Below, piece after piece: positions 40,012 through 63,770 of a stretch of DNA of 64,000 nt. The DNA is from Alphaproteobacteria bacterium. Its GTDB lineage: Bacteria > Pseudomonadota > Alphaproteobacteria > UBA828. Below the pieces are notes generated by a model, which searched no databases, was not told the origin of the DNA, and saw nothing but the letters and a program-made list of their open reading frames with translations. The DNA is taken from contig OZ243972.1 of the NCBI GenBank assembly GCA_965214705.1, positions 544,001-608,000 on the forward strand, in the 5' to 3' direction. Position 1 is the first letter of the stretch. Each line of letters opens with the position of its first letter. The position numbers and the translations under genes were made by a program.

Positions 40012-40480
40012 TGCAGCGCCGGTAAGCCCGGTGCAAGGACCTTGCACGGCGGGTGACGGCGGCTGGCAGGAGGCGGTTGCGACGCTCTCCCGCGCGGCCG
40101 GGCGCTACGGCGCTCTGTTGGCGGCGGCGGGCGGGGACCGGGCGGAGGCGGCGTCTCGGCTGTGGCTGCGGAGCCGCGACGATGCGGCGCTCCGCGATGA
40201 CCTCGCCAGGGCCGCCTGTGCGCTTCTGGCGTTGGCGCCGGGCGGAGGCGAGACCACGAGGCCGGCCTCGAAGCCAGCGGGGCGGCGCCGGCCGGGGCGC
40301 CTGTCGCGCTTCGATCTGGACCCGGAGGTCGCGGCCTTCGTGCGCGAGCGGCTGGGGACGATGCCGGTCGTCAGGATCGCAGACGCGGCCCTGGCGCGGT
40401 TCGGTCCGGATCGCGCGCCGCGCAAGACCGCGATCTGCCGCTACTGGCACCGGCTCGAAGAGGGGCGCCGCGAGACGTAA
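39998..40480 (+). CDS. Hypothetical HTH protein with a gp27/DUF3486-like C-terminal domain
   Basis: LSRFDLDPEVAAFV...PRKTAICRYW resembles SSIKRLP...SRSAVGRY. Confidence 0.5.
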   Translation: MRRSDAAPVSPVQGPCTAGDGGWQEAVATLSRAAGRYGALLAAAGGDRAEAASRLWLRSRDDAALRDDLARAACALLALAPGGGETTRPASKPAGRRRPGRLSRFDLDPEVAAFVRERLGTMPVVRIADAALARFGPDRAPRKTAICRYWHRLEEGRRET

Positions 40481-51673: not shown

Positions 51674-53586
51674 CCCAAGTTGGCACTTTTCCGCTGCCTG
51701 TGTTCCCTATTGGTTTGATTCAACGCGATATTTTTCTCGGTCGATTCCAACATGGCCCCACATTTTGTGAGATTCTGTCAGCTCATCAGACGGGTCCTCG
51801 TGCGGTGGATGGCGGGGTCCACGCCCGCCGCCGAGGAGATTGCGGCAACCTCGGCGGCCGGGCGCGTGTCCTGGCGGTTGACGATCAAGGTGCCGTCGGT
51901 CTGGCGCAGGCGCGTGGTGATCCGCACCCAGGTCCGCATGCTCTCGCGGATCGACGCCCAGCACTTGTGGATGCCGCGCGCGGCCAGCCGGGTACGGATC
52001 AGATGCACGGCGTGGTAGGCCAGCACGGCGATCAGCAGGTGGGCCGCGATGCGCCGGTCGAGCTGGTGCCAGATCGGGCGAAGGCCGAGCTCGGATTTCA
52101 GGCTCCGGAATGTCGCCTCGATATCCGTGATCCGCCAGTACGTCCGCAGGACCGTCTCGATGTCCCAGTCGACGTGGCTGGTGCGCAGCACATAGGCACC
52201 GGCGCCCTCATCGGCCTCGTCGTATCGCGGCCTGCGCTTGAAGCGCACGGCGGTGGCATTGGGGCCGGTTTTCGCCCTCTCGACCGTGATCTCGTAGTGC
52301 CTGGCGACGGCGGAGAAGCGCTGCTTGAGGCGGCCTATGCTCTCCAGCACCTTGTCGTAGCGCTTGAGGCGGCCCTTGACCGGGAGGCCGCCGTGGAGCC
52401 TTTCCAGCGCCGCCTCGAAGCGGTTCCGCCTCAGGCCGATGATCGCGTTCTCGGCCTTCTTCTTGCCCTCGCTGACGACGTAGAGCCGCGCCTCGCCGTC
52501 CTCGCTGGCAAGCCGCCAGGCCCGCACCTCGTGGCGCGCGCTGGTGATCAGCAGGGCCTCGGGTCCGCCCTCGGGCGGCGCAGGCCTGGCACCGCGGCTG
52601 ACCGCGATCCAGTCGTAGCCCTGCTCGCCCAGCCACGCGATGTTTTTCTCGGTGGCGATGCCCGCGTCCATGACCACCGTGGGCTTCGGCGCCGTGCCGC
52701 CGCACACCGCCTCGAGCCGCGCCAGCGCCTCGTGCAGCGTGCCCGGCTCGCTCACGTTGCCCGGCAGGATCTCGCAACTGCGCGGGAAGCCCGCGCCGTC
52801 GAGCGCCAGCGCCAGCGTGATGAGGGGACAGTCGTCGCGCTTCTGCTTGGAGCGCCCGAACCTGGGAAGCTCGCCGCCCGTGTGGCCGTGGTAGTGGACG
52901 TTGGTGAGATCGTAGAAGGCGATCGTCTCGGGCAGGTCGAGCAGTGCGCGCTCACGGTTGAACAGCTCCCGCTGGATGGCGGCGCGGTGGCGCCAGAGCA
53001 GGTCGCCGATGCGGTAGAGCGTCTTGCGCCGCAGCGCCTTGCGGTCGCCCTCCAGGCCCAGGAGCTCGGCGGCCGCGCTGTCGTGGCGGAGCCAGCGGCT
53101 GGTATCACGCTCGCTGGCGGGATGGACCATCCTGGCGACGATCAGCGCGCTGGCGATGCGCCCGTCGCGGCCCTTGATGTCGAGGCCGTGGAGGATTTCG
53201 GCGAAGCCGAGGGCGTCGAGGGCCTTGAGGCACAGGCGCTCGCAGCCGACCGTGCGCGGGTTCTCGTGCTCCAGGGTATCGAGGTCGACGGTGGCGATGT
53301 CGGGCTTGCGCGCCTCTTCCTGCATCGCCTCGACGCGGAACCCCCTGGCCCTGAGCTTGGCGACGATGTCCTCGGCTGCGGCCCGCACATCCGCCTCGCC
53401 CTCGAACAGCGGCGGCTTGCCGTGAAGCAGCGCCTCGGCGAGTTCGGTGACGGCCTTCCACTTCTCGCGCGGCACCGGATAGTCGGTGCCGAGATTGAGC
53501 AGCGTCCTGTGGCGCACCTTGTCGCCGACGCGCTGGGCGAGCACGAGGCGATGGCTTCGGACCGGCTGGCCGGCCTTGTCGGTGTG
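51674..53586 (-). mobile_element. Second, 5'-truncated copy of IS1634-B (inverted)
   Basis: Near identical to ~20889-22801; left end and first transposase codons are missing. Confidence 0.92.
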
Positions 53587-55122: not shown

Positions 55123-58100
55123 TCGAGAGGCAGTCCGCCGCCGGTTGTGGGGGCCGGCTGCCGTGCCGGAAGTTCGTGCCAAGGACGATCGAAGGGCGGG
55201 CCGGCGGGACGAGTCACAGCTCGAGGCCCATGTCGATGTCGCGCTCCTTCGCCTTGCTGGCTTCGAGCTCCTGCTGACGGCGTTCGATCTCGGCCTTGTC
55301 CGATGCCAGGGTGGATTCGATCCGCGCGGAAAGGCGCCTGCTCTCGTCCTCCGCGCCCGGACGGCGGTCGAGATGCCTGCCGTAGGTCTCGGGGTCGTCC
55401 AGGATGCGGCGGCAGCCGTCGAGGGCGCGGAGGGCGCCATCGCGCCATTCGCCGTAGGCGGGATCCTCGGTGACATGGGCGCTGTTACTGGCAGCAATCG
55501 TCGCGTGCTCTTCGCGCTGCCGGATCGAGGCGGCGGCCGCTGACAGGGCGCGCTCCAGGAAGCGTTCCGCCGCCTTGCGGTTCTCCCTTTCCGCCTCGTC
55601 CAGGACCGTTGCCTTCTCCGCAGGCGGCATCGGCCAGTCGGTTTCCGGCGAGCCGCCGAACTGTTCGCCGATGGCCTTCAGCGCCGACATCTGCTCCGCA
55701 GGCGAAGTCTCCAGGGCCTCGATCAGCGCCTCGCGGTCGTCGGTCAGCAGCACCACGTTGTCGCGGGCGCGGGTGAGTTCCACATAGAAGGTCGCCTGGT
55801 CGGCAACTCCCCCGCGCTCGGTATCCAGGACAGCGATGGCCCGATCGCAGGTGATGCCCTGGGCAGCGTGCACGGTGGACGAGTAGGCGTGGTCCAGGTG
55901 GTGAAGCTGTGGGTCGTCGCGGGCCATGACGATCTCACTTCCGTCCTGGGTGCGTATCGTGACGTTCACCCGGCGGATGGACAGCACTTCCGCATGTTCG
56001 CCGTTGATCAGGCCGCGCGCAGAATCGTTGCGAGTCCAGCGCACCCGGTCTCCCGCCTTGAGCACCATCGGCCGGGTCTCGAAGAGGTCGAGGCGGTAGC
56101 GGATATAGCCGGAGGGGTCGATTGTGCGCTCCTTACCGCCGGGGAGGGTGAGCACGAGGCGCTCGTCTCCCACCTCCGTCACACGGCAGGCATCGCCGGC
56201 CTTCGCACGGACGCCGTAGACGTCGTGGTGGAATATGGCGACATCGCCCTCCCGGTAGTTGGCGATGTCGCCCTTCTGGGAGCGGGTCAGGTGGAGGTTG
56301 ACGTAGCGCTCGATCTCGAGCTCTGGGCCGTGCAGCACCCCTTCGTCCTCCAGGCCGTGACGGACGGCGGCGTTGATCTCGGCCCTGAGCTCGTGCGTGG
56401 GCGCGAGGATGGCCGTTCCGGGTCGCAGGTCGGGATCGAGGTCGAGCCAGAGTTGTGCCGCCTTCCTGCCGAGTTCGTCGCTCGCCGTCTCCAGGACGCC
56501 GTTGCCGAGTTCCTCGACCGCAAGGCGCGGCTCGTCCGCCACCATGTGCAGCACCGCCTGCCGCAGGTCCGCATCGCGCTGGCGTACCACCTCCTCCATC
56601 CTGGCGGTGGGCAACCCTGCGTCCTGCAGCAGGGCGAAGGGCTGGCCGGCCTCCACGGCCCGCAGCTGCCTCCTGTCGCCGATCAGCGCGAGGCGCTCGA
56701 CGCCGGTCTCGGCGGCGATCCGGGTCAACGCCCGCATCTGGGTGTTGCCGACCATCGAGGCCTCATCGAGGATCAGCACCGAGCCGCCGAGCGCCTTGCG
56801 CGCTTCCTCCGTCCTCTCGGGCGAGGCGATGCCGTCGCCCACGTCGCGATAGCGCGTGAGGAACCATTGCAGGGTGCGGGCCGGGATATCGGCTTCGCCT
56901 TCGAGCACGCGCGCGGCGCTTGCCGAAGGAGCCAGTCCGATAATCGGCCTCTCGCCAGCCAGCGCCGCCACCGTGCGCAGCATGGTGGTCTTGCCCGAGC
57001 CCGCGTGCCCCTGCACGCCCACGGTGACATGAGGCGAGAGCAGGATTCCGCGCACCGCGTCGCGCTGGCCGGGGTTCAGCCCGGCCGCGTCGAGCCTCGC
57101 CTCCACTGCCTCCGCCGGCGCCAGGCTTCGTCCGGCGTCCAGGCCGGCGCGCATGCCGGCGACAATGTCGCGCTCGGCGTTGCGCGCCTGGTCGGTGACG
57201 AAGGCCAGGTCGGCCCTTCGCGCCGTCACCTCGATCAGGTGTCCGTCGCGCCGGAGCCGGGCGATGCCGACGTCCAGCGCTTCGAGCGAGTGCCGGCCGC
57301 CCCCATGGGCCAGAGCCCAGGCGCGCAGGTCGTTGGCGGAGAACACAGTGCGCCGCTCCTCCAGGTGCTCGACGGCCTGCCGCACCACGGCAAGCGCCGA
57401 CGGCTGCGCCCGCGGCTCGGGCATAGGGGTTGCCGATGCGCCGATCCCGTCGCGGCCCCTTGCGATGTCCCGGTCGCGCGCCGGGCCGAGTTCTTGCGCC
57501 CGTTCCTTCCATGTCCGGTGCAGGACCTGCCGATCCGGCTCGGCCTTGCGCTGCCGTGTGTAAAGCGCCGCCTGCTGTGCTCTCGCCGGCGTGTTCTCCC
57601 AGCCACGCTCCTGCATGTAGTCCAACAACTCGCGGCGGCGGGTCGAGAAGGCGTCCAGCATCGGCTTGCCGTAGCCCGCGATCTCGAACCCCGGCATCCG
57701 CCCCACAAGCGTCGGCACCGTGGCGTAGCCGATTTTTTCGAGCCCCATGCGCAGCTCGTTGCGGTAGTAGGCGCCGATCAGCAGCTTCGAGCGCTCCACC
57801 GCGGTGAACTCGGCGCTCCGCCACTCCCCGTTCCGGCCGCGCGTCATGTTGGCGATCACCGCGTGCGTGTGCAGCTGCGGGTCGAGGTTGCGGCTCGCGA
57901 GATGCCGGAAGGTCGCCGCCGCCATGCCGTCGGCCTCCACCCTGGGCCTGCGGCCGGTCTCGGGCTCGTAGCTCCGAGTCTGCAACAGCGCGGTCTCAAT
58001 GAAGCCCAACGTGGCGCGCACCGCCTCGTCGTGCGCCCTCACCACCCGCGCGCCGGTCTTCGGCGCCGCGTAGATCAGCGCTTCCAGGGATACCGACTTG

Positions 58101-58418
58101 GGAGCGGAAAAGGTCACGTCCACGCCGGGCCTGTGCTGGTGCTCGCCGTCGCGGAGGCGGCCGAGGCGAATGTCGGTGCCGGGCACGTAGCCCGCAAGCA
58201 GGGCCTCGAAGCGTTTCGGCTTGACCGGCCCGTGCAGGCCCATCAACGCCGCTGCCTCGCCGTACCAGATGCCGTAATGGGGCGCGGCATCAACCGGCAC
58301 CGTTGGAGCCTGTACCGATGACGGCGAATCGGGGTGTCGTTGCCCTTACACGCTGAGCGTGTCCACGGGGTCTTGCCGGAAGGCGCGCCCCAATTCCTCG
58401 AAAGGAAAGGGCAACGAC

Positions 58419-59462
58419 ATGGATGTCTATATCGGGCTGGATGTATCGCTGGCAAGCACGACAATCTGCGTGATCGGCGAGAAGGGCAAGATCGTGACCG
58501 AGGCGCAGATCGCCAGCACGCCTGAAGCGCTGGTCGTGTTCATGGGCAAGCTGGAGCACGAGATCGCGGCGATCGGTCTTGAGGCCGGTCCCCTGTCCCA
58601 CTGGCTGCACAAGGGGCTGACCGACGCCGGCTTCGAGGCCGTGCTGATGGAGACCCGGCGGGTGAAGGCGGCGCTGAAGGCGATGCCGATCAAGACGGAT
58701 CGGCGGGATGCCGAGGGCATCGCGCGTCTTCTGCAGATGGGCTGGTTCAGGCCGGTGCACTGCAAGTCGGTGTCGTCGCAGGAGATGCGCGCACTTCTGA
58801 CCTCGCGCAGCTCCGTGAGGGACGCGCTCACCGATATGGAACTCTCGGCGCGCGGCGTGTTGCGCAACTTTGGCCTGAAGCTGGGCCAAGTCTCGAAGGG
58901 CCGCTGGGAGGCCCGCGTCCGGGAGTTGATCGCAGGCAACGCGATGCTGGAGGCCGCCGTCGAACCGATCCTGCGCGCGCGGTCGGCTCTGCGCCGCGAG
59001 CTGGCCGGCCTGGAGAAGCTGGTCCGCGACCTGGCCAGGGAGGATCCGGTATGCCGGCTCCTGATGACCATGCCCGGCGTGGGCGCGGTCGTGGCCCTGA
59101 CCTTCAAATCGGCGATCGACGATCCCGAGCGGTTCCGGAGATCGAAGGATGTCGGCCCCTGGGTGGGACTGACGCCGGGACGGGACCAATCCGGCGAGCG
59201 AGATATTGTCGGCGGCATCACGAAGTGCGGCGACGCAGGTCTGCGGGCCGCGCTCTATCAGGCGACCACGGTGATGCTGAACCGCACCGCCGGGCCGAAC
59301 TGGCTGAAGGCCTGGACGCTGCGTCTGGCGAAGCTCCGCGGCAAGAAGCGGGCGACCGTCGCCTTGGCCCGGCGCATCGGCGTGGTACTTCACCGGATGT
59401 GGCGGGACGGCACCGAGTTCCGCTTCACGCGCGAGGAGGCAATGGCGCTCCAGACGGCATAG
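58419..59462 (+). CDS. IS110 DEDD recombinase/transposase
   Basis: IGLDVS, GLEAG, KTDRRDA, PGVG and GLTP..QSG motifs. Confidence 0.95.
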   Translation: MDVYIGLDVSLASTTICVIGEKGKIVTEAQIASTPEALVVFMGKLEHEIAAIGLEAGPLSHWLHKGLTDAGFEAVLMETRRVKAALKAMPIKTDRRDAEGIARLLQMGWFRPVHCKSVSSQEMRALLTSRSSVRDALTDMELSARGVLRNFGLKLGQVSKGRWEARVRELIAGNAMLEAAVEPILRARSALRRELAGLEKLVRDLAREDPVCRLLMTMPGVGAVVALTFKSAIDDPERFRRSKDVGPWVGLTPGRDQSGERDIVGGITKCGDAGLRAALYQATTVMLNRTAGPNWLKAWTLRLAKLRGKKRATVALARRIGVVLHRMWRDGTEFRFTREEAMALQTA

Positions 59463-59556
59463 GCGCGGCTGCATCCCACCGACAATCAGCAGCGAGAGGA
59501 GGAAAGAGCCGCGCCTGAAGGTGGCGATCCACCGCTATCCCCTCGCCGGGACGCGG

Positions 59557-59730
59557 TTCCCGATGATGCACGTGCGAGCGGCTGTTGCCGAATCGCTTCT
59601 TGGCATTCGAGCACGCATACCAGATCGGCACTCGGGAATCGTCTTGGACCGGGTATGAAGTTGGCAGCCGCTCTGCGCTGACCACGGACGGAAGCGAGAG
59701 CCTGGCGACGGGGACATATCCGGGGGTCCC
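59557..59730 (+). ncRNA. Putative bridge/seekRNA (target-binding and donor-binding loops)
   Basis: Stem TTCCCGA/TCGGGAA encloses GCGAGCGGCTG and TACCAG, which match the target; stem CCGGGTATG/CATATCCGG encloses ACGGAAG, which matches the donor junction. Confidence 0.72.
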
Positions 59731-60026
59731 GCTTCCTGCACCGTGCCGCGTCGACGAGCCCGTTAGCCGCCAAGGCAACCACCTGTGTCGATCATGCTGA
59801 CCATGCCTGCGAGAGGCCCTGCCGCAGGCGACGGTGCCCCATGTTCGAGTGGCCGTGCCAGGCCGGAACGTTGTGAAGATCCCTGCTTGACATCAACCGC
59901 CCCATTACGGAAGCCGCTCGCCTTGCGGTGCTCCGGGTCATTTCTGGCGTAGTAGCCGTCCGCCTCGAAGTAGTGCACCGTCGTGGCGGCGGCCTTCAGG
60001 CGGATGACGGTCGCGACCATGGTTGC

Positions 60027-60899
60027 CTACCGGTCCGTCGTGCCGTCGAATTCCTCTTCGGGCGGCACCTTGGTCACGCCAACGTCAGGGTAGAGGGGGA
60101 CCGTCAACTCCGGTGTGGGTCCCACGTGCATCTGGCACCTGACAAACTCGTCGAGTTGACGCGCCCTGGACGTGCAGGCGGCGAGCGTCGGGGAGTAGTG
60201 CTCCGCCACGAAATCGTTCCACGCGTACCGCGGATCGCCGAAGGACATGACGTTCGCCTCCCGCTGCAGCACCGCACCCAGCACGAAAAAGACGAACGCG
60301 GCGGCCGCCACTGCGAGACCGAACCGCCAGTGCCGCCACCGCAGTCTGCCGGAGATGCGGGACAAGTCGTTGCGGAGGGAGCGCAGCTGGTCGCCGAGCG
60401 CCGTCGCCGATTGGATCATGTCCTCAAGACTGTGGGCGGCCACGGCCGACTGCCGGTCCGTGGCGTGGATACGCTGGTCGAGGGCCTCGCCCTGCGTCTT
60501 CAGCGCGGCGGCGGCCCCGGCCAAGGCGCGCGCTGTCTCCGCCGCCCCGTCCCGGCCCGCGGCCAATTCTGCAGCCTTGGCAAGCGCGCGGCGCGCGTTG
60601 GCAACCGCCTGAGCCAGCGCCGCCGTCTCACGAACCAACTCCTTGGCCGTGTCGTGCTTCGGCAACCGGGCGTCCTGGAGTGCGTCGATGCGGGAAGCCG
60701 TCGCCCTTACCGTCGCGAGGATCTCGGCGATGGCGTTGTCGTGCGCATCGGGTTGCGGGGATGGCGCCGCCGCAGGTGCCTTCTCGACCGCATCAGCCGG
60801 CCGGCCTGCCGCCCCTTCCGGTCGGCCGACCAGCAGGTCGCGGCCATCAAATGCGTCTTTGCCGGATTTCGGACCGCTGCGCCTCTCCTCCGGCGCCAT
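60027..60899 (-). CDS. Coiled-coil membrane protein upstream of the relaxase
   Basis: Ala-rich heptads and one TM segment FGLAVAAAAFVFFVLGAVL. Confidence 0.6.
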   Translation of the reverse strand: MAPEERRSGPKSGKDAFDGRDLLVGRPEGAAGRPADAVEKAPAAAPSPQPDAHDNAIAEILATVRATASRIDALQDARLPKHDTAKELVRETAALAQAVANARRALAKAAELAAGRDGAAETARALAGAAAALKTQGEALDQRIHATDRQSAVAAHSLEDMIQSATALGDQLRSLRNDLSRISGRLRWRHWRFGLAVAAAAFVFFVLGAVLQREANVMSFGDPRYAWNDFVAEHYSPTLAACTSRARQLDEFVRCQMHVGPTPELTVPLYPDVGVTKVPPEEEFDGTTDR

Positions 60900-61007
60900 G
60901 ATCGCCTCCCCGCTCAAAAAAACGTTGTTCGTGGTTTGCTTAGTGAGAGATATCGGAACCGGCAGGCCGAATGACAAGAGCCTCGGACGTTCAAGTCCGG
61001 GTCGGAT

Positions 61008-62536
61008 GAGCCACTTGCAAAACTCTCGGGCACGGTGCGTTCGTCCCGGGAGTTCGATATGAGGGCAGCGGTTGGTCGAACGTAACGCGAACGATCGGTC
61101 GAATCGACGGTTCGACATGCCGCATGGCCACCGTCGGGGAGCCGATTTGTCGCGAGCGAGGGCCGTTGCGGTCACATTCGTGGCCCGGCGCCGGGATGCG
61201 GGCGCGGCTCACCGTGCCCCCATCGAGGGAGGCGTGTTCCGGCATGACAGGGACAGAACCGAAAGTGAGGTTCAAGTCAGAAGGCGCACCAATTGGTCTA
61301 CCGTCAGCGCCAGGATGCCGAACATCGCGTGGCAGTAGACTTTGGCATGGCCGCGCACGTGGACATGGCGTCCACCGCAGTTGTCCTTCAGCCCGCCATT
61401 GATGCGCTCGACGTTCGAGCGTTCGCTGTAACGGTCGTCCGCCGGGTGGCTGTGGCCGATACGGCGCCGCGCCTTGGCCTCCCGCGCCAAGTCCTCTTTG
61501 AAGCCCCTGTCCCGAGGAATTGATGTCGATGATTGGGACGTGGCCCAACAGATAGCTGTGCCAGCCGATCTCAGGCGCGTCGTAGGCTGAGTCCATGAGA
61601 TCGTACAGATTGGTCACGCGTTCGGCGCTCATGGTCGCCAGCGGGATCGCGACCTGACTGTCGTGCAGCGAGGCAGACGTCAGGATGCAACTGACCGGGA
61701 TGCCGCCATCGGCGGCATCGATGTGCAGCTTGTAGCCGATCCACGACGTGGTGTGGCCCTTGGCGTTTCGCTTGGTGCCGACATCGCAGGCTCTGGGCAG
61801 ATCGTCGAGCATCTGCGGCAGGGTCATGTCGAGCTGGCGCTCCACGCGGCGCTGCTCCTTGGGCCGCTCCTCACCCTTGCGCGGGCGACCGCGCTTGCGC
61901 TTCGGCTTCTCCTTCTTGCGTTTGCGCTGAGGCTTCTCGCGCGCCTCGACCGCCGTCGAATCGCGCGAGACATGCCCCACCAGGTGGTCGCCGAGGGTCT
62001 GCTTGATCAGCGCCTCGTGCAGGCGTGCGGGCAGGGCACTCTCGGAGAACTCGGCGAAGGCCCGTGAAAAGGTCGCCTCGCTCGGCACTTCTCCGGCATA
62101 GTTCCAGCCGCACAATCGGCGCAACGTCTTGTCGACCTCAAGGCGCTCGATCAGTGCGCGTGTCGTGGGTACGTCGAACACCGCCTTGGCGATGAAGGCG
62201 CGCGCCAGCGCCGCACGGTCCTCGACCGGCCGACCGGGCAGGCCATGAAAATGGGGAAGGAAGCTCTCGACCCGCGCAAACTCAAGCACAGTGACGAAGC
62301 GCCGATACCTCTCGCCGAGTGGCCCGAGCTCCTCCTCAAGCCACGGGAAGAGATCGCCTTGAAGGGAGTTCAAGAATCTGGTTAGTGTCTGTCCCAGCGA
62401 CATGGGACCGGGGACCGCTCTCCCTGTCGATGTCTTCGGAAGCCCGACAGGAACAGAGAGCGGTCCCGATTCCCAGAACAATCTGCATCACATGGCGGCA
62501 AAATCCCGCTCAACGGCGAAACTCTGCAAGTGGCTC
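61008..62536 (-). mobile_element. IS5/IS1182-like element
   Basis: TIR GAGCCACTTGCA at both ends; no target duplication visible. Confidence 0.75.
61272..62403 (-). pseudogene. DDE transposase with a +1 frameshift at ~61518
   Basis: PSEATFSRAF, SRDSTA and GYKLH motifs; deleting one base gives IDINPRDRGFKEDLAREAK.. into the 61272-61490 ORF. Confidence 0.8.
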
Positions 62537-62592: not shown

Positions 62593-63770
62593 GTGTCCTG
62601 ATTCCGAAGTTCGCATAGCTATGATTGGGCTGGCGCGAGTTCGAGGGTTCTCAGGCAGAAGCGCTTGATGGAAGCCAGGATTTCGTCGGCTGACTTGTGC
62701 CAGCGGAACGGCTTGGGGTCCTCGTTGACGGCCTCGATGTACGCGGTGATCGCCTGCTCCAACTCGACGGTCGAGCGGTGAACCCCGCGACGGATCTGCT
62801 TCTCCGTCAGATCGGAGAAGAACCGCTCCACTTGGTTGAGCCACGACGCCGAGGTCGGCGTGAAGTGGACATGCCAGCGAGGCCGCTTGGCGAACCAGGC
62901 GCGGACTTCCTTCGTCTTGTGCGTCGAGTAGTTGTCCATGACGATATGGATGTCGAGATCCTCGGGCACGTTGGCCTCGATGTGGTCCAGGAACTTGCGG
63001 AACTCTCGGCTTCGGTGACGGTGGAAACACTTGCCGATGACCTCGCCGGTGGCGACGTCGAGGGCGGCGAACAACGAGGTCGTGCCGTTGCGCTTGTAGT
63101 CATGGGTGCGCCGCTCAACCTGGCCGGGCCGCAGCGGCAGCAGGGGCTGGGTGCGGTCGAGGGCCTGAACCTGGGACTTCTCGTCCACACAGAGAACCAT
63201 GGCATGCTGCGGCGGGTCCACGTACAGGCCGACGATGTCGCGCACCTTGTCCACGAAGTACGGGTCCGCCGACAGCTTGAAGGTCTCGCTGCGGTGCGGT
63301 TGCAGGGAAAAGGCCTGCCAGATGCGATGGATGGTCGAGGCGCCGTAACCGGTGGCGCGCGCCATCGAGCGCAGGCTCCAGTGGGTGGCGTCGGGCGGTG
63401 TTTCCTCCAGCGTCATGCGAACGACCTCGGCAACCTCGTCGTCGCCGATGCGCCGGGGCGCGCCCGAACGCGGTGCGTCGTGCAGACCGTCGAGGCGGTG
63501 TGCGGCGAAGCGGCGGCGCCACTTGCCGACGGTCAACTCCGTGACATCCAACAAGGCCGCAATCTCCTTGTTGGAGAGCCCGTCCGCTGCCGCCAGCACG
63601 ATCCGTGCCCTCAGCGCCAAGGCCTGCCACGACTTGCGGCTCCGGCTCAGCCGATCCAGCTCCTTGCGCTCTTCATCTGTCAGGATGATGTCCACCGCTG
63701 TTCTCGCCACGGAATGAGCCTCCTCGCTTCAATCAACAATGCAGTAATACGAACTTATGGATCAGGACAC
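62593..63770 (-). mobile_element. IS630-family element, complete
   Basis: TIR GTGTCCTGAT..AAGTTCG; TA duplication in a CTAG context. Confidence 0.93.
62619..63710 (-). CDS. IS630 transposase
   Basis: [22 protein letters not shown] and [10 protein letters not shown] motifs. Confidence 0.95.

Follow-up and report, generated by a model that had tools for sequence, protein, structure and literature searches.

An IS1111-group element in a relaxase gene carries predicted RNA guides that fit its insertion site and covary with flanking DNA among its relatives

Introduction

How did an insertion sequence (IS) come to lie inside a TrwC-type relaxase gene, and is it aimed at such genes? The locus is part of a 64,000-nucleotide (nt) stretch of an alphaproteobacterial genome (contig OZ243972.1), called the window below, and the element at 58269-59913 belongs to the IS1111 group of the IS110 family. 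A sequence-only reading of the window had proposed that the element's non-coding RNA carries guides matching its target in the relaxase gene and that through these it homes into mobilisable elements. We put the probability at about 0.87 that this is an intact IS1111-group element with an RNA-guided DEDD recombinase, and that its insertion into the relaxase gene was directed by its own guides. A specialisation on relaxase genes is improbable.

The layout of the guide RNAs, called seekRNAs or bridge RNAs, has been known since 2024 (PMC11187229, PMC11208160), and the element is a further member of this class. For the IS1111 group, PMC11187229 describes a C-terminal GL-P----S(t)G motif in the transposase, a longer non-coding region downstream of the transposase gene, and a seekRNA whose 5' segment is complementary to the top strand and whose 3' segment is complementary to the bottom strand, the two overlapping in the target. 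PMC11208160 gives the group subterminal inverted repeats of 7-17 bp and predicts bridge RNAs in the right end of 93% of IS1111 elements. Judged at the level of sequence, every testable hallmark of such an element is present here.

Results

The element and its empty site

The element and the two pieces of the gene that it interrupts are as follows.

58269..59913, + strand: IS1111-group (IS110-family) insertion sequence, 1645 bp, intact
58272..58284: left subterminal inverted repeat CCGTAATGGGGCG, 13 nt, 3 nt inside the left end, 100% complementary to 59898-59910
59898..59910: right subterminal inverted repeat CGCCCCATTACGG, 3 nt inside the right end
58419..59462, + strand: transposase gene, 347 amino acids (aa), intact
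59914..60020, - strand: N-terminal 35 codons of the TrwC-type relaxase, start ATG at 60020-60018, matching the N-termini of intact paralogues
55214..58268, - strand: remainder of the relaxase, Pfam TrwC (PF08751) at 2e-72, profile positions 27-286 of 286

The family assignment proposed from sequence alone is backed by the protein and the ends alike. In the transposase, Pfam finds DEDD_Tnp_IS110 (PF01548, N-terminal, 3.4e-14), the DEDD domain of the family, and Transposase_20 (PF02371, C-terminal, 3.9e-22), while the NCBIfam model NF033542, 'IS110 family RNA-guided transposase', matches with 243.8 bits (cut-off 140) over profile positions 1-342 of 343. The translation contains G-L-T-P-G-R-D-Q-S-G, which fits the C-terminal motif of the IS1111 group. 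The inverted repeats form a perfect 13 bp, within the range of the group, and are kept in relatives. Non-coding DNA is distributed as the group requires, with 150 nt upstream of the transposase gene (58269-58418) against 451 nt downstream (59463-59913).

Relatives were taken as the best 80 of 508 confirmed loci, with transposases 71-95% identical, together with the other copies in the element's own genome; their source samples are sponge, marine and coral metagenomes. The 80 loci have common ends, reading AT(G/A)CCGTAATGGGGC after a flanking AG on the left and closing with GCCCCATTACGGAAG on the right, and the other copies in the genome do likewise. The boundary is ambiguous by 2 nt, as the core AG stands in the flank at 58267-68 and again as the element's last bases at 59912-13.

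Excision of 58269-59913 leaves ...GTACC-AG-CCGCTCGC... on the + strand, which reads GCGAGCGG-CT-GGTAC along the relaxase strand. The natural empty site can be seen in two paralogues of the same genome that lack the insertion and are 97% and 94% identical over 289 aa. The 97% paralogue reads AAGGCCAGCGG-CT-GGTACGGCGAG, or AAG GCC AGC GG-CT-GG TAC GGC (K-A-S-G-W-Y-G), and the 94% paralogue reads ...GCGAGCGG-TT-GGTGC..., with TT replacing the CT core. The claim that removing the element restores an empty site is thus confirmed by natural genes that lack it. The intact paralogues have a single CT and the interrupted gene has a CT on either side of the insertion, of which one is reckoned to the element; insertion therefore adds the element only and duplicates none of the target apart from the shared core AG. 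In a sponge metagenome and an RNA library, contigs also skip from 58266 to 59912 (1645 bases), along with two variants, with sides of just 21-28 letters that may derive from the paralogues, and they add little on the empty site.

The N-terminal piece of the relaxase translates as M-V-A-T-V-I-R-L...D-G-Y-Y-A-R-N-D-P-E-H-R-K-A-S. Its Y-Y pair, which we take to be the catalytic tyrosines, lies about 10 codons before the insertion point, which falls in a conserved A-S-x-W motif. The C-terminal piece carries helicase domains (AAA_30 at 5.9e-46, AAA_19 and Viral_helicase1), the domain content of a MOBF (TrwC-type) relaxase. Insertion at the codons A-S-G-W-Y would inactivate the gene.

Target guides that covary with the flanks

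Two segments of the downstream non-coding region fit the two sides of the insertion site.

59574..59584, + strand: predicted target guide A, GCGAGCGGCTG, complementary to the + strand core plus right flank (59912-59921) and to C58266
59617..59623, + strand: predicted target guide B, ATACCAG, of which TACCAG (59618-23) equals the + strand left flank plus core (58263-58268) and pairs with the opposite strand

The pairing of guide A covers eight flank positions, the two core positions and one beyond, C58266, the base to the left of the core. The two guides lie in one internal loop, address opposite target strands and overlap at the core, which is the arrangement of a seekRNA or bridge RNA.

The relatives show that these segments vary as guides would. 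Among 41 distinct target loops the scaffold is conserved and contains hypervariable patches at exactly two places, which flank the distal hairpin, and the patches coincide with the segments that had been singled out as guides, 59574-84 and 59618-23. Across the family, the guide A patch covaries with the right flanks and the guide B patch with the left flanks. With one insertion for each lineage, the 5' guide matched its own flanks at a mean of 4.84 of 9 positions, against 2.67 (standard deviation 0.22) after shuffling, in 38 lineages; the 3' guide matched at 4.40 of 7, against 1.87 (standard deviation 0.19), in 35 lineages. No shuffle out of 2000 reached the observed match for either guide, and the same was true with all 85 and 70 insertions. 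Comparing flanks with guide segments across homologues, the check put forward when the segments were named, thus finds covariation for both. The match within the window is by itself suggestive; the family-wide comparison of guides and flanks we regard as decisive, as far as sequences can be.

Many copies are followed by tandem repeats of the right end, or of the non-coding region plus right end (L030, L031, L059-L077, L078 and L082 among the related loci; C3:1724226-1724982 in the own genome). Three right ends are spaced 35 nt apart in L047 (4330-4431) and three are spaced 97 nt apart in L064 (4441-4664), while the repeat units of L062 are about 924 nt apart. The flank that fits the guide comes after the second tandem unit in L030, not the first. 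Tandem copies that follow some of the first-found right ends lower the observed match means.

A conserved RNA module

Both guides lie in a module whose consensus fold has the following parts.

~59539..59712, + strand: conserved structured non-coding module (seekRNA/bridge-like RNA), from an alignment of 38 relatives and the RNAalifold consensus
59545..59550, + strand: outer stem GCCGGG, pairing with CCTGGC at 59701-59706 and enclosing both loops (helix 2, 6 pairs, 96.5% paired)
59553..59569, + strand: 5' arm of the stem closing the target loop, containing TTCCCGA and pairing with 59628-59642
59628..59642, + strand: 3' arm of that stem, containing TCGGGAA (helix 3)
59587..59612, + strand: distal hairpin in the target-binding loop, GCCGAAT ... 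ATTCGAGC, 59587-93 pairing with 59605-12 (helix 4, 7 pairs, 5 compensatory)
59660..59685, + strand: hairpin of the donor part, GTTGGCAGC ... GCTGACCAC, 59660-68 pairing with 59677-85 (helix 5, 8 pairs, 99.7% paired)

The block 59539-59712 is conserved even at 71% protein identity, and the rest of the non-coding region is not, save its last 30 nt. The stem proposed from the window, TTCCCGA (59557-63) with TCGGGAA (59632-38), reappears within helix 3 of the consensus, which has 13 pairs, is 99.0% paired and shows compensatory change in four of them. In helix 5, 21 sequences have A-U and 15 have G-C at alignment columns 149/170. Over the 38 distinct sequences, 98.1% of the cells of the 36 consensus pairs are paired and 13 pairs have changed on both sides. 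None of 500 shuffles reached the observed values on any of five measures, and sliding the partners by 1-3 columns, as a control, left merely 29-39% of cells paired. The structure was predicted on the same alignment that was used to count pairs, which favours the consensus somewhat.

One contig of an RNA library joins 59459 to 59539 and skips the 79 nt between the transposase stop codon and the module. Some relative is evidently without this spacer, in keeping with a conserved module that begins at 59539. In the loop and stem of the donor hairpin, CAGCCGCTC (59665-73) has the same nine bases as the core plus right target, which may be chance.

Donor guides

The second part of the module contains two short segments that match the element's own ends.

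59688..59694, + strand: right-end donor guide ACGGAAG, identical to the element's last 7 nt (59907-13)
59652..59656, + strand: candidate left-end donor guide GG(C/T)AT, complementary to the element's first 5 nt, ATGCC (58269-73)

ACGGAAG had been named as a donor guide, and in relatives the RNA segment does change together with the right end: ACAGAAG goes with ACAGAAG (9 loci), ACGAAAG with ACGAAAG (L048) and ATGGAAG with ATGGAAG (L087). The exceptions are four loci of three sequence types (L040, L079/L080 and L091). The sequence-only reading left the other donor guide unlocated, and on its covariation we propose GG(C/T)AT at 59652-56, a short segment that has no core match and whose register is less certain. 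ATGCC stands with GGCAT in 44 loci and ATACC with GGTAT in 19 (18 in the L059 group, and L087); the L052-55 group also has GGTAT, by eye. Exceptions are the window copy, L021, L048, L093 and L079/80. These aside, sequence comparison has the right-end 7-mer and the left-end 5-mer both covarying with the ends, as the donor guides of a seekRNA or bridge RNA should.

Copies and near-cognate sites in the same genome

Besides the window copy, the genome (7.9 Mb) holds two that are full-length and 97% identical to it, of which one is interrupted by a different element, and a fragment of the right half. Each guide of the sister copies departs from that of the window copy at a single base (GCTAGCGGCT and (A/C)(G/A)ACCAG). 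The host gene encodes an IS66-family transposase for one of them and a DDE_Tnp_1 (IS4-like) transposase for the other; the right flank of the fragment is again CCGCTCGC, in yet another context. All the copies in the genome share the insertion motif ..CC-AG followed by (C/A)CGCT(C/G)GC, with the boundary after AG, and so have a fixed orientation and position.

We searched the genome for unoccupied sites that differ from the window copy's 15-nt ideal site at no more than two positions. No exact free site for its guides was found in the genome. There were 65 free sites with one mismatch, 63 of them in IS4-like copies, and 88 with two, of which 42 lie in IS66-like copies, one in a paralogue of trwC and the other 45 elsewhere, so that 105 of the 153 near-cognate sites lie within two high-copy IS families. 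The genome's load of mobile elements includes 35 TrwC-like matches, about 64 IS4-like (DDE_Tnp_1) copies and about 47 IS66-like copies.

The occupied IS4-like copy bears on specificity. All 63 empty copies of that family read GATACC-AG followed by CCGCTGGC. In the lone occupied copy the site is GAGACC-AG, and guide B of the element that it contains is AGACC-AG. Were the position irrelevant, the chance of reaching the lone variant copy would be about 1 in 64. The occupied IS66-like copy, discussed below, speaks in the opposite sense, and we treat this comparison within one genome as suggestive only. A possible covariation at guide A position -6 among the genome's copies was rejected, as the three T copies face the equivalents G, C and G, none of them complementary.

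The IS66-like gene that hosts a sister copy (L002 3156-3465, C3) changes frame about 17 codons past the insertion point, the gene having either decayed and acquired a frameshift or been misassembled.

The genome also contains a second element of IS1111 type, distinct from the first, 1605 bp with one core copy, with the ends ATCCTATGGGGCC ... CAGCCCCATAAGAG and the same two Pfam domains. It lies at C1:1326790-1328394 and C1:2642147-2643749, both times within copies of the studied element's transposase gene and at an identical position, ..GAACTGG-CT-GAAGG.., equivalent to 59304-59305 in the window. The host copies are about 83-97% alike and the two inserts 99.8% identical, a pattern that points to two separate insertions. 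The non-coding region of the second element contains GAACTGGC and CCTTCAG, which match its two flanks. Its third copy, C3:617968-619570, lies in another context at GAGAACTGG-CT-GAAC. The right-half fragment of the studied element (C3:1724373) is cut at the same position and abuts the same end of the second element.

Surroundings of the relaxase gene

Transposase genes flank the interrupted relaxase, all on the - strand, at 60994-62481 (DDE_Tnp_1 with DUF772), 62622-63710 (DDE_3 with helix-turn-helix domains) and 51781-53544 (DDE_Tnp_1). A 382-aa frame just upstream of the relaxase (60030-61175) had no Pfam match. The open reading frames scanned around the relaxase included no transfer genes.

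Discussion

The anatomy of the element, its family membership, the conserved structure and the covariation of guides with flanks and ends can be read directly from the window and its relatives. That the RNA is made, is bound by the transposase and directs recombination we infer from published work on relatives. By that analogy, the DEDD transposase would use an RNA, the seekRNA or bridge RNA, from the element's own downstream non-coding region. In its target loop, a 5' guide of about 10-11 nt would pair with one strand of the core plus right flank and a 3' guide (about 6-7 nt) would do so with the opposite strand of the left flank plus core, while two short constant guides in the second part would recognise the element's own ends. 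The excised circle would then insert at the CT/AG core without target duplication. The window copy would have entered the one place in its genome to which its guides corresponded along their entire length. Two high-copy IS families contain sites that suit this guide pair, or a pair altered by one base in each guide, and the sister copies would have landed there.

Several results weigh against this reading. The whole 451-nt non-coding region folds no better than shuffled sequence (z -0.26); the 174-nt module does somewhat better (z -2.18), yet when it is folded as a single sequence its minimum-energy structure is not the consensus one, since CAGCCGCTC offers guide A a partner. A scan of 57500-60500 against Rfam 15, with E up to 1, matched no family, the coverage of this RNA class in Rfam being uncertain. 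No sigma-70-like promoter and no intrinsic terminator were found in a scan of the element. Contigs from two runs recorded as RNA extend over the transposase gene and into the non-coding region as far as about 59600, with at least 90% identity and with little depth beyond, but these are assembled contigs, from which neither transcription nor its absence follows. Many natural insertions match their own guides imperfectly. The sister copy in the IS66-like gene has two guide A mismatches, one of them adjoining the core; the copy that it occupies has A next to the core, as in merely 3 of about 46 empty copies, and fits the guide worse. Lastly, the window copy has GGTAT against ATGCC, placing U opposite G at position 3, a combination unique to it. 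On the matter of a promoter, the sequence TTGACA at 59886-91, 22 nt from the right end, could supply the -35 box of a promoter that the circle junction completes, by analogy with ISEc11, for which such a promoter is described (PMC11187229).

The alternative that survives best, though clearly less likely than an element still able to move, is that the window copy is a dead relic, whose guide matches record a past insertion. It is the sole copy with these guides, the C-to-U change in its left-end donor guide is found nowhere else, and no exact free site is left for it in the genome. Against this, its transposase frame is open and full length by the family model and neither inverted repeat has a mismatch. 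A U facing G forms a wobble pair, and the flanks match the guides, as circle formation requires in ISEc11 (PMC11187229).

A more speculative view, which we hold to be rather unlikely, does not dispute the mechanism and concerns the choice of targets. The guides of the IS1111-type elements in this genome may be adapted to conserved coding motifs within other mobile elements, with guide evolution tracking abundant and harmless landing sites in rival elements. We consider it because of the fit to A-S-x-W in the relaxase, the 63 IS4-like and 42 IS66-like fits, and the repeated site of the second element. If true, it would mean a safe haven for, or a conflict between, mobile elements, in which single-base guide changes retarget copies within one genome. 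A preference of the whole family for mobile-element genes was examined and rejected, as among the families listed about a dozen of the 99 flank reading frames are of this kind and the rest are ordinary genes. Those listed (25 of 51 families) include rve 4, Transposase_20 3, DEDD_Tnp_IS110 2 and one each of IS66, TrwC, Transposase_mut, IS240 and Mu, and some of these matches share a frame or are tandem copies of the element itself.

Less probable still is the homing that had been proposed for the element, in which a guide pair selected for the A-S-x-W motif of MOBF relaxase genes takes it into conjugative or mobilisable elements, which it rides on or disables. Targets would be plentiful, with 35 TrwC-like matches in the genome. 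Among the 28 TrwC-like paralogues that can be aligned at the site, 23 keep A-S-x-W, 21 have the CT core and 21 are within four mismatches of the 15-mer; the window copy's guides match the relaxase site perfectly over 11 + 6 nt; and other IS1111 members target parts of other mobile elements, according to references in PMC11208160. However, only 4 of the 28 are within two mismatches of the 15-mer, no other aligned paralogue is interrupted at the site, and trwC paralogues account for just one of the 153 near-cognate free sites. No insertion at the relaxase site occurs among the 80 related loci, L074 being in a TrwC-like gene elsewhere (between residues 295 and 418). The 99 flank reading frames of relatives gave one TrwC match, most of the families listed being ordinary enzymes and transporters. 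No copy more than 91% identical was present outside the genome among 60 relatives, and metagenome scans for guide A in its scaffold and for the junction of right end plus flank gave 0 matches each. The relaxase itself adjoins transposase genes, with no transfer genes in the frames scanned. A count of insertions in trwC alleles, suggested along with the homing proposal, finds at the relaxase site just the window copy among everything searched, and the sister copies sit in IS66-like and IS4-like transposase genes, not in relaxases. The proposal therefore finds no support: the relaxase is the landing place of the window copy and not its specialised prey, the best single fit among about 150 near-cognate places. 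In the literature on the IS1111/IS110 family and relaxases we found no such target described, though the supplementary tables of the 2024 papers might hold a close relative.

Chance matches in GC-rich DNA with no guide RNA at all, to which the weak thermodynamic signal and a second occurrence of the 11-mer GCGAGCGGCTG in the 64-kb window (at 40344; 0.4 expected) might speak, are hardly credible beside the family-wide covariation of both target guides with flanks and of both donor guides with ends, and a conserved structure with compensatory changes.

The element can be set beside known systems. ISEc11, ISKpn4, ISPst6 and ISPa11, as far as PMC11187229 describes them, share with it a DEDD transposase, 330-350 aa long and bearing the GL-P----S(t)G motif, inverted repeats that are subterminal, with short extensions at the termini, a long downstream non-coding region, the same order of RNA segments and no target duplication. 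They differ in target, here a relaxase coding sequence known from sequence alone, and the donor-end guides described here are not among the features taken from that source for its IS1111 elements. IS621, of the IS110 group, resembles it in having a two-loop RNA with separate target- and donor-binding parts and a CT core in the pairings (PMC11208160, here and below for this element). On the CT strand the long 5' guide of IS621, which addresses the left target, is 9 nt against 10-11 here, and its short 3' guide, for the right target, is 4 nt plus an extension against 6-7 here. The IS621 RNA lies in the left end, upstream of the gene, and its repeats are 2-3 bp, whereas here the RNA lies in the right end and the repeats are 13 bp; the order of the guides relative to the transposase gene is reversed, as is stated for the two groups (PMC11187229). 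The left-end donor guide here is merely 5 nt and, unlike that of IS621, lacks a core match.

ISPpu9 and ISPpu10 of Pseudomonas putida are reported to be IS110-family elements that insert into a multi-copy host sequence, as here. Their targets are extragenic repeats, in contrast to the multi-copy near-cognate sites found here inside the transposase genes of other IS families.

A fixed target within another mobile element has company in the IS1111 group, from examples known before 2024. IS4321 and IS5075 reportedly target the terminal repeats of Tn21-family transposons, and the IS1111-attC group is said to target integron attC sites. These are non-coding recombination sites and recurrent, whereas here the target is a coding motif with one insertion.

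The findings leave the known mechanism unchanged. They provide a natural IS1111-group element annotated in full: its ends and core, the two target guides, the two donor guides and a consensus fold of the RNA drawn from 38 relatives. Its host belongs to an alphaproteobacterial lineage known from metagenomes of sponges and marine samples, and the element could give a further scaffold for programmable recombinases. Its three full-length copies, with two guide variants at three sites, also make a small natural test of guide specificity at single-base resolution.

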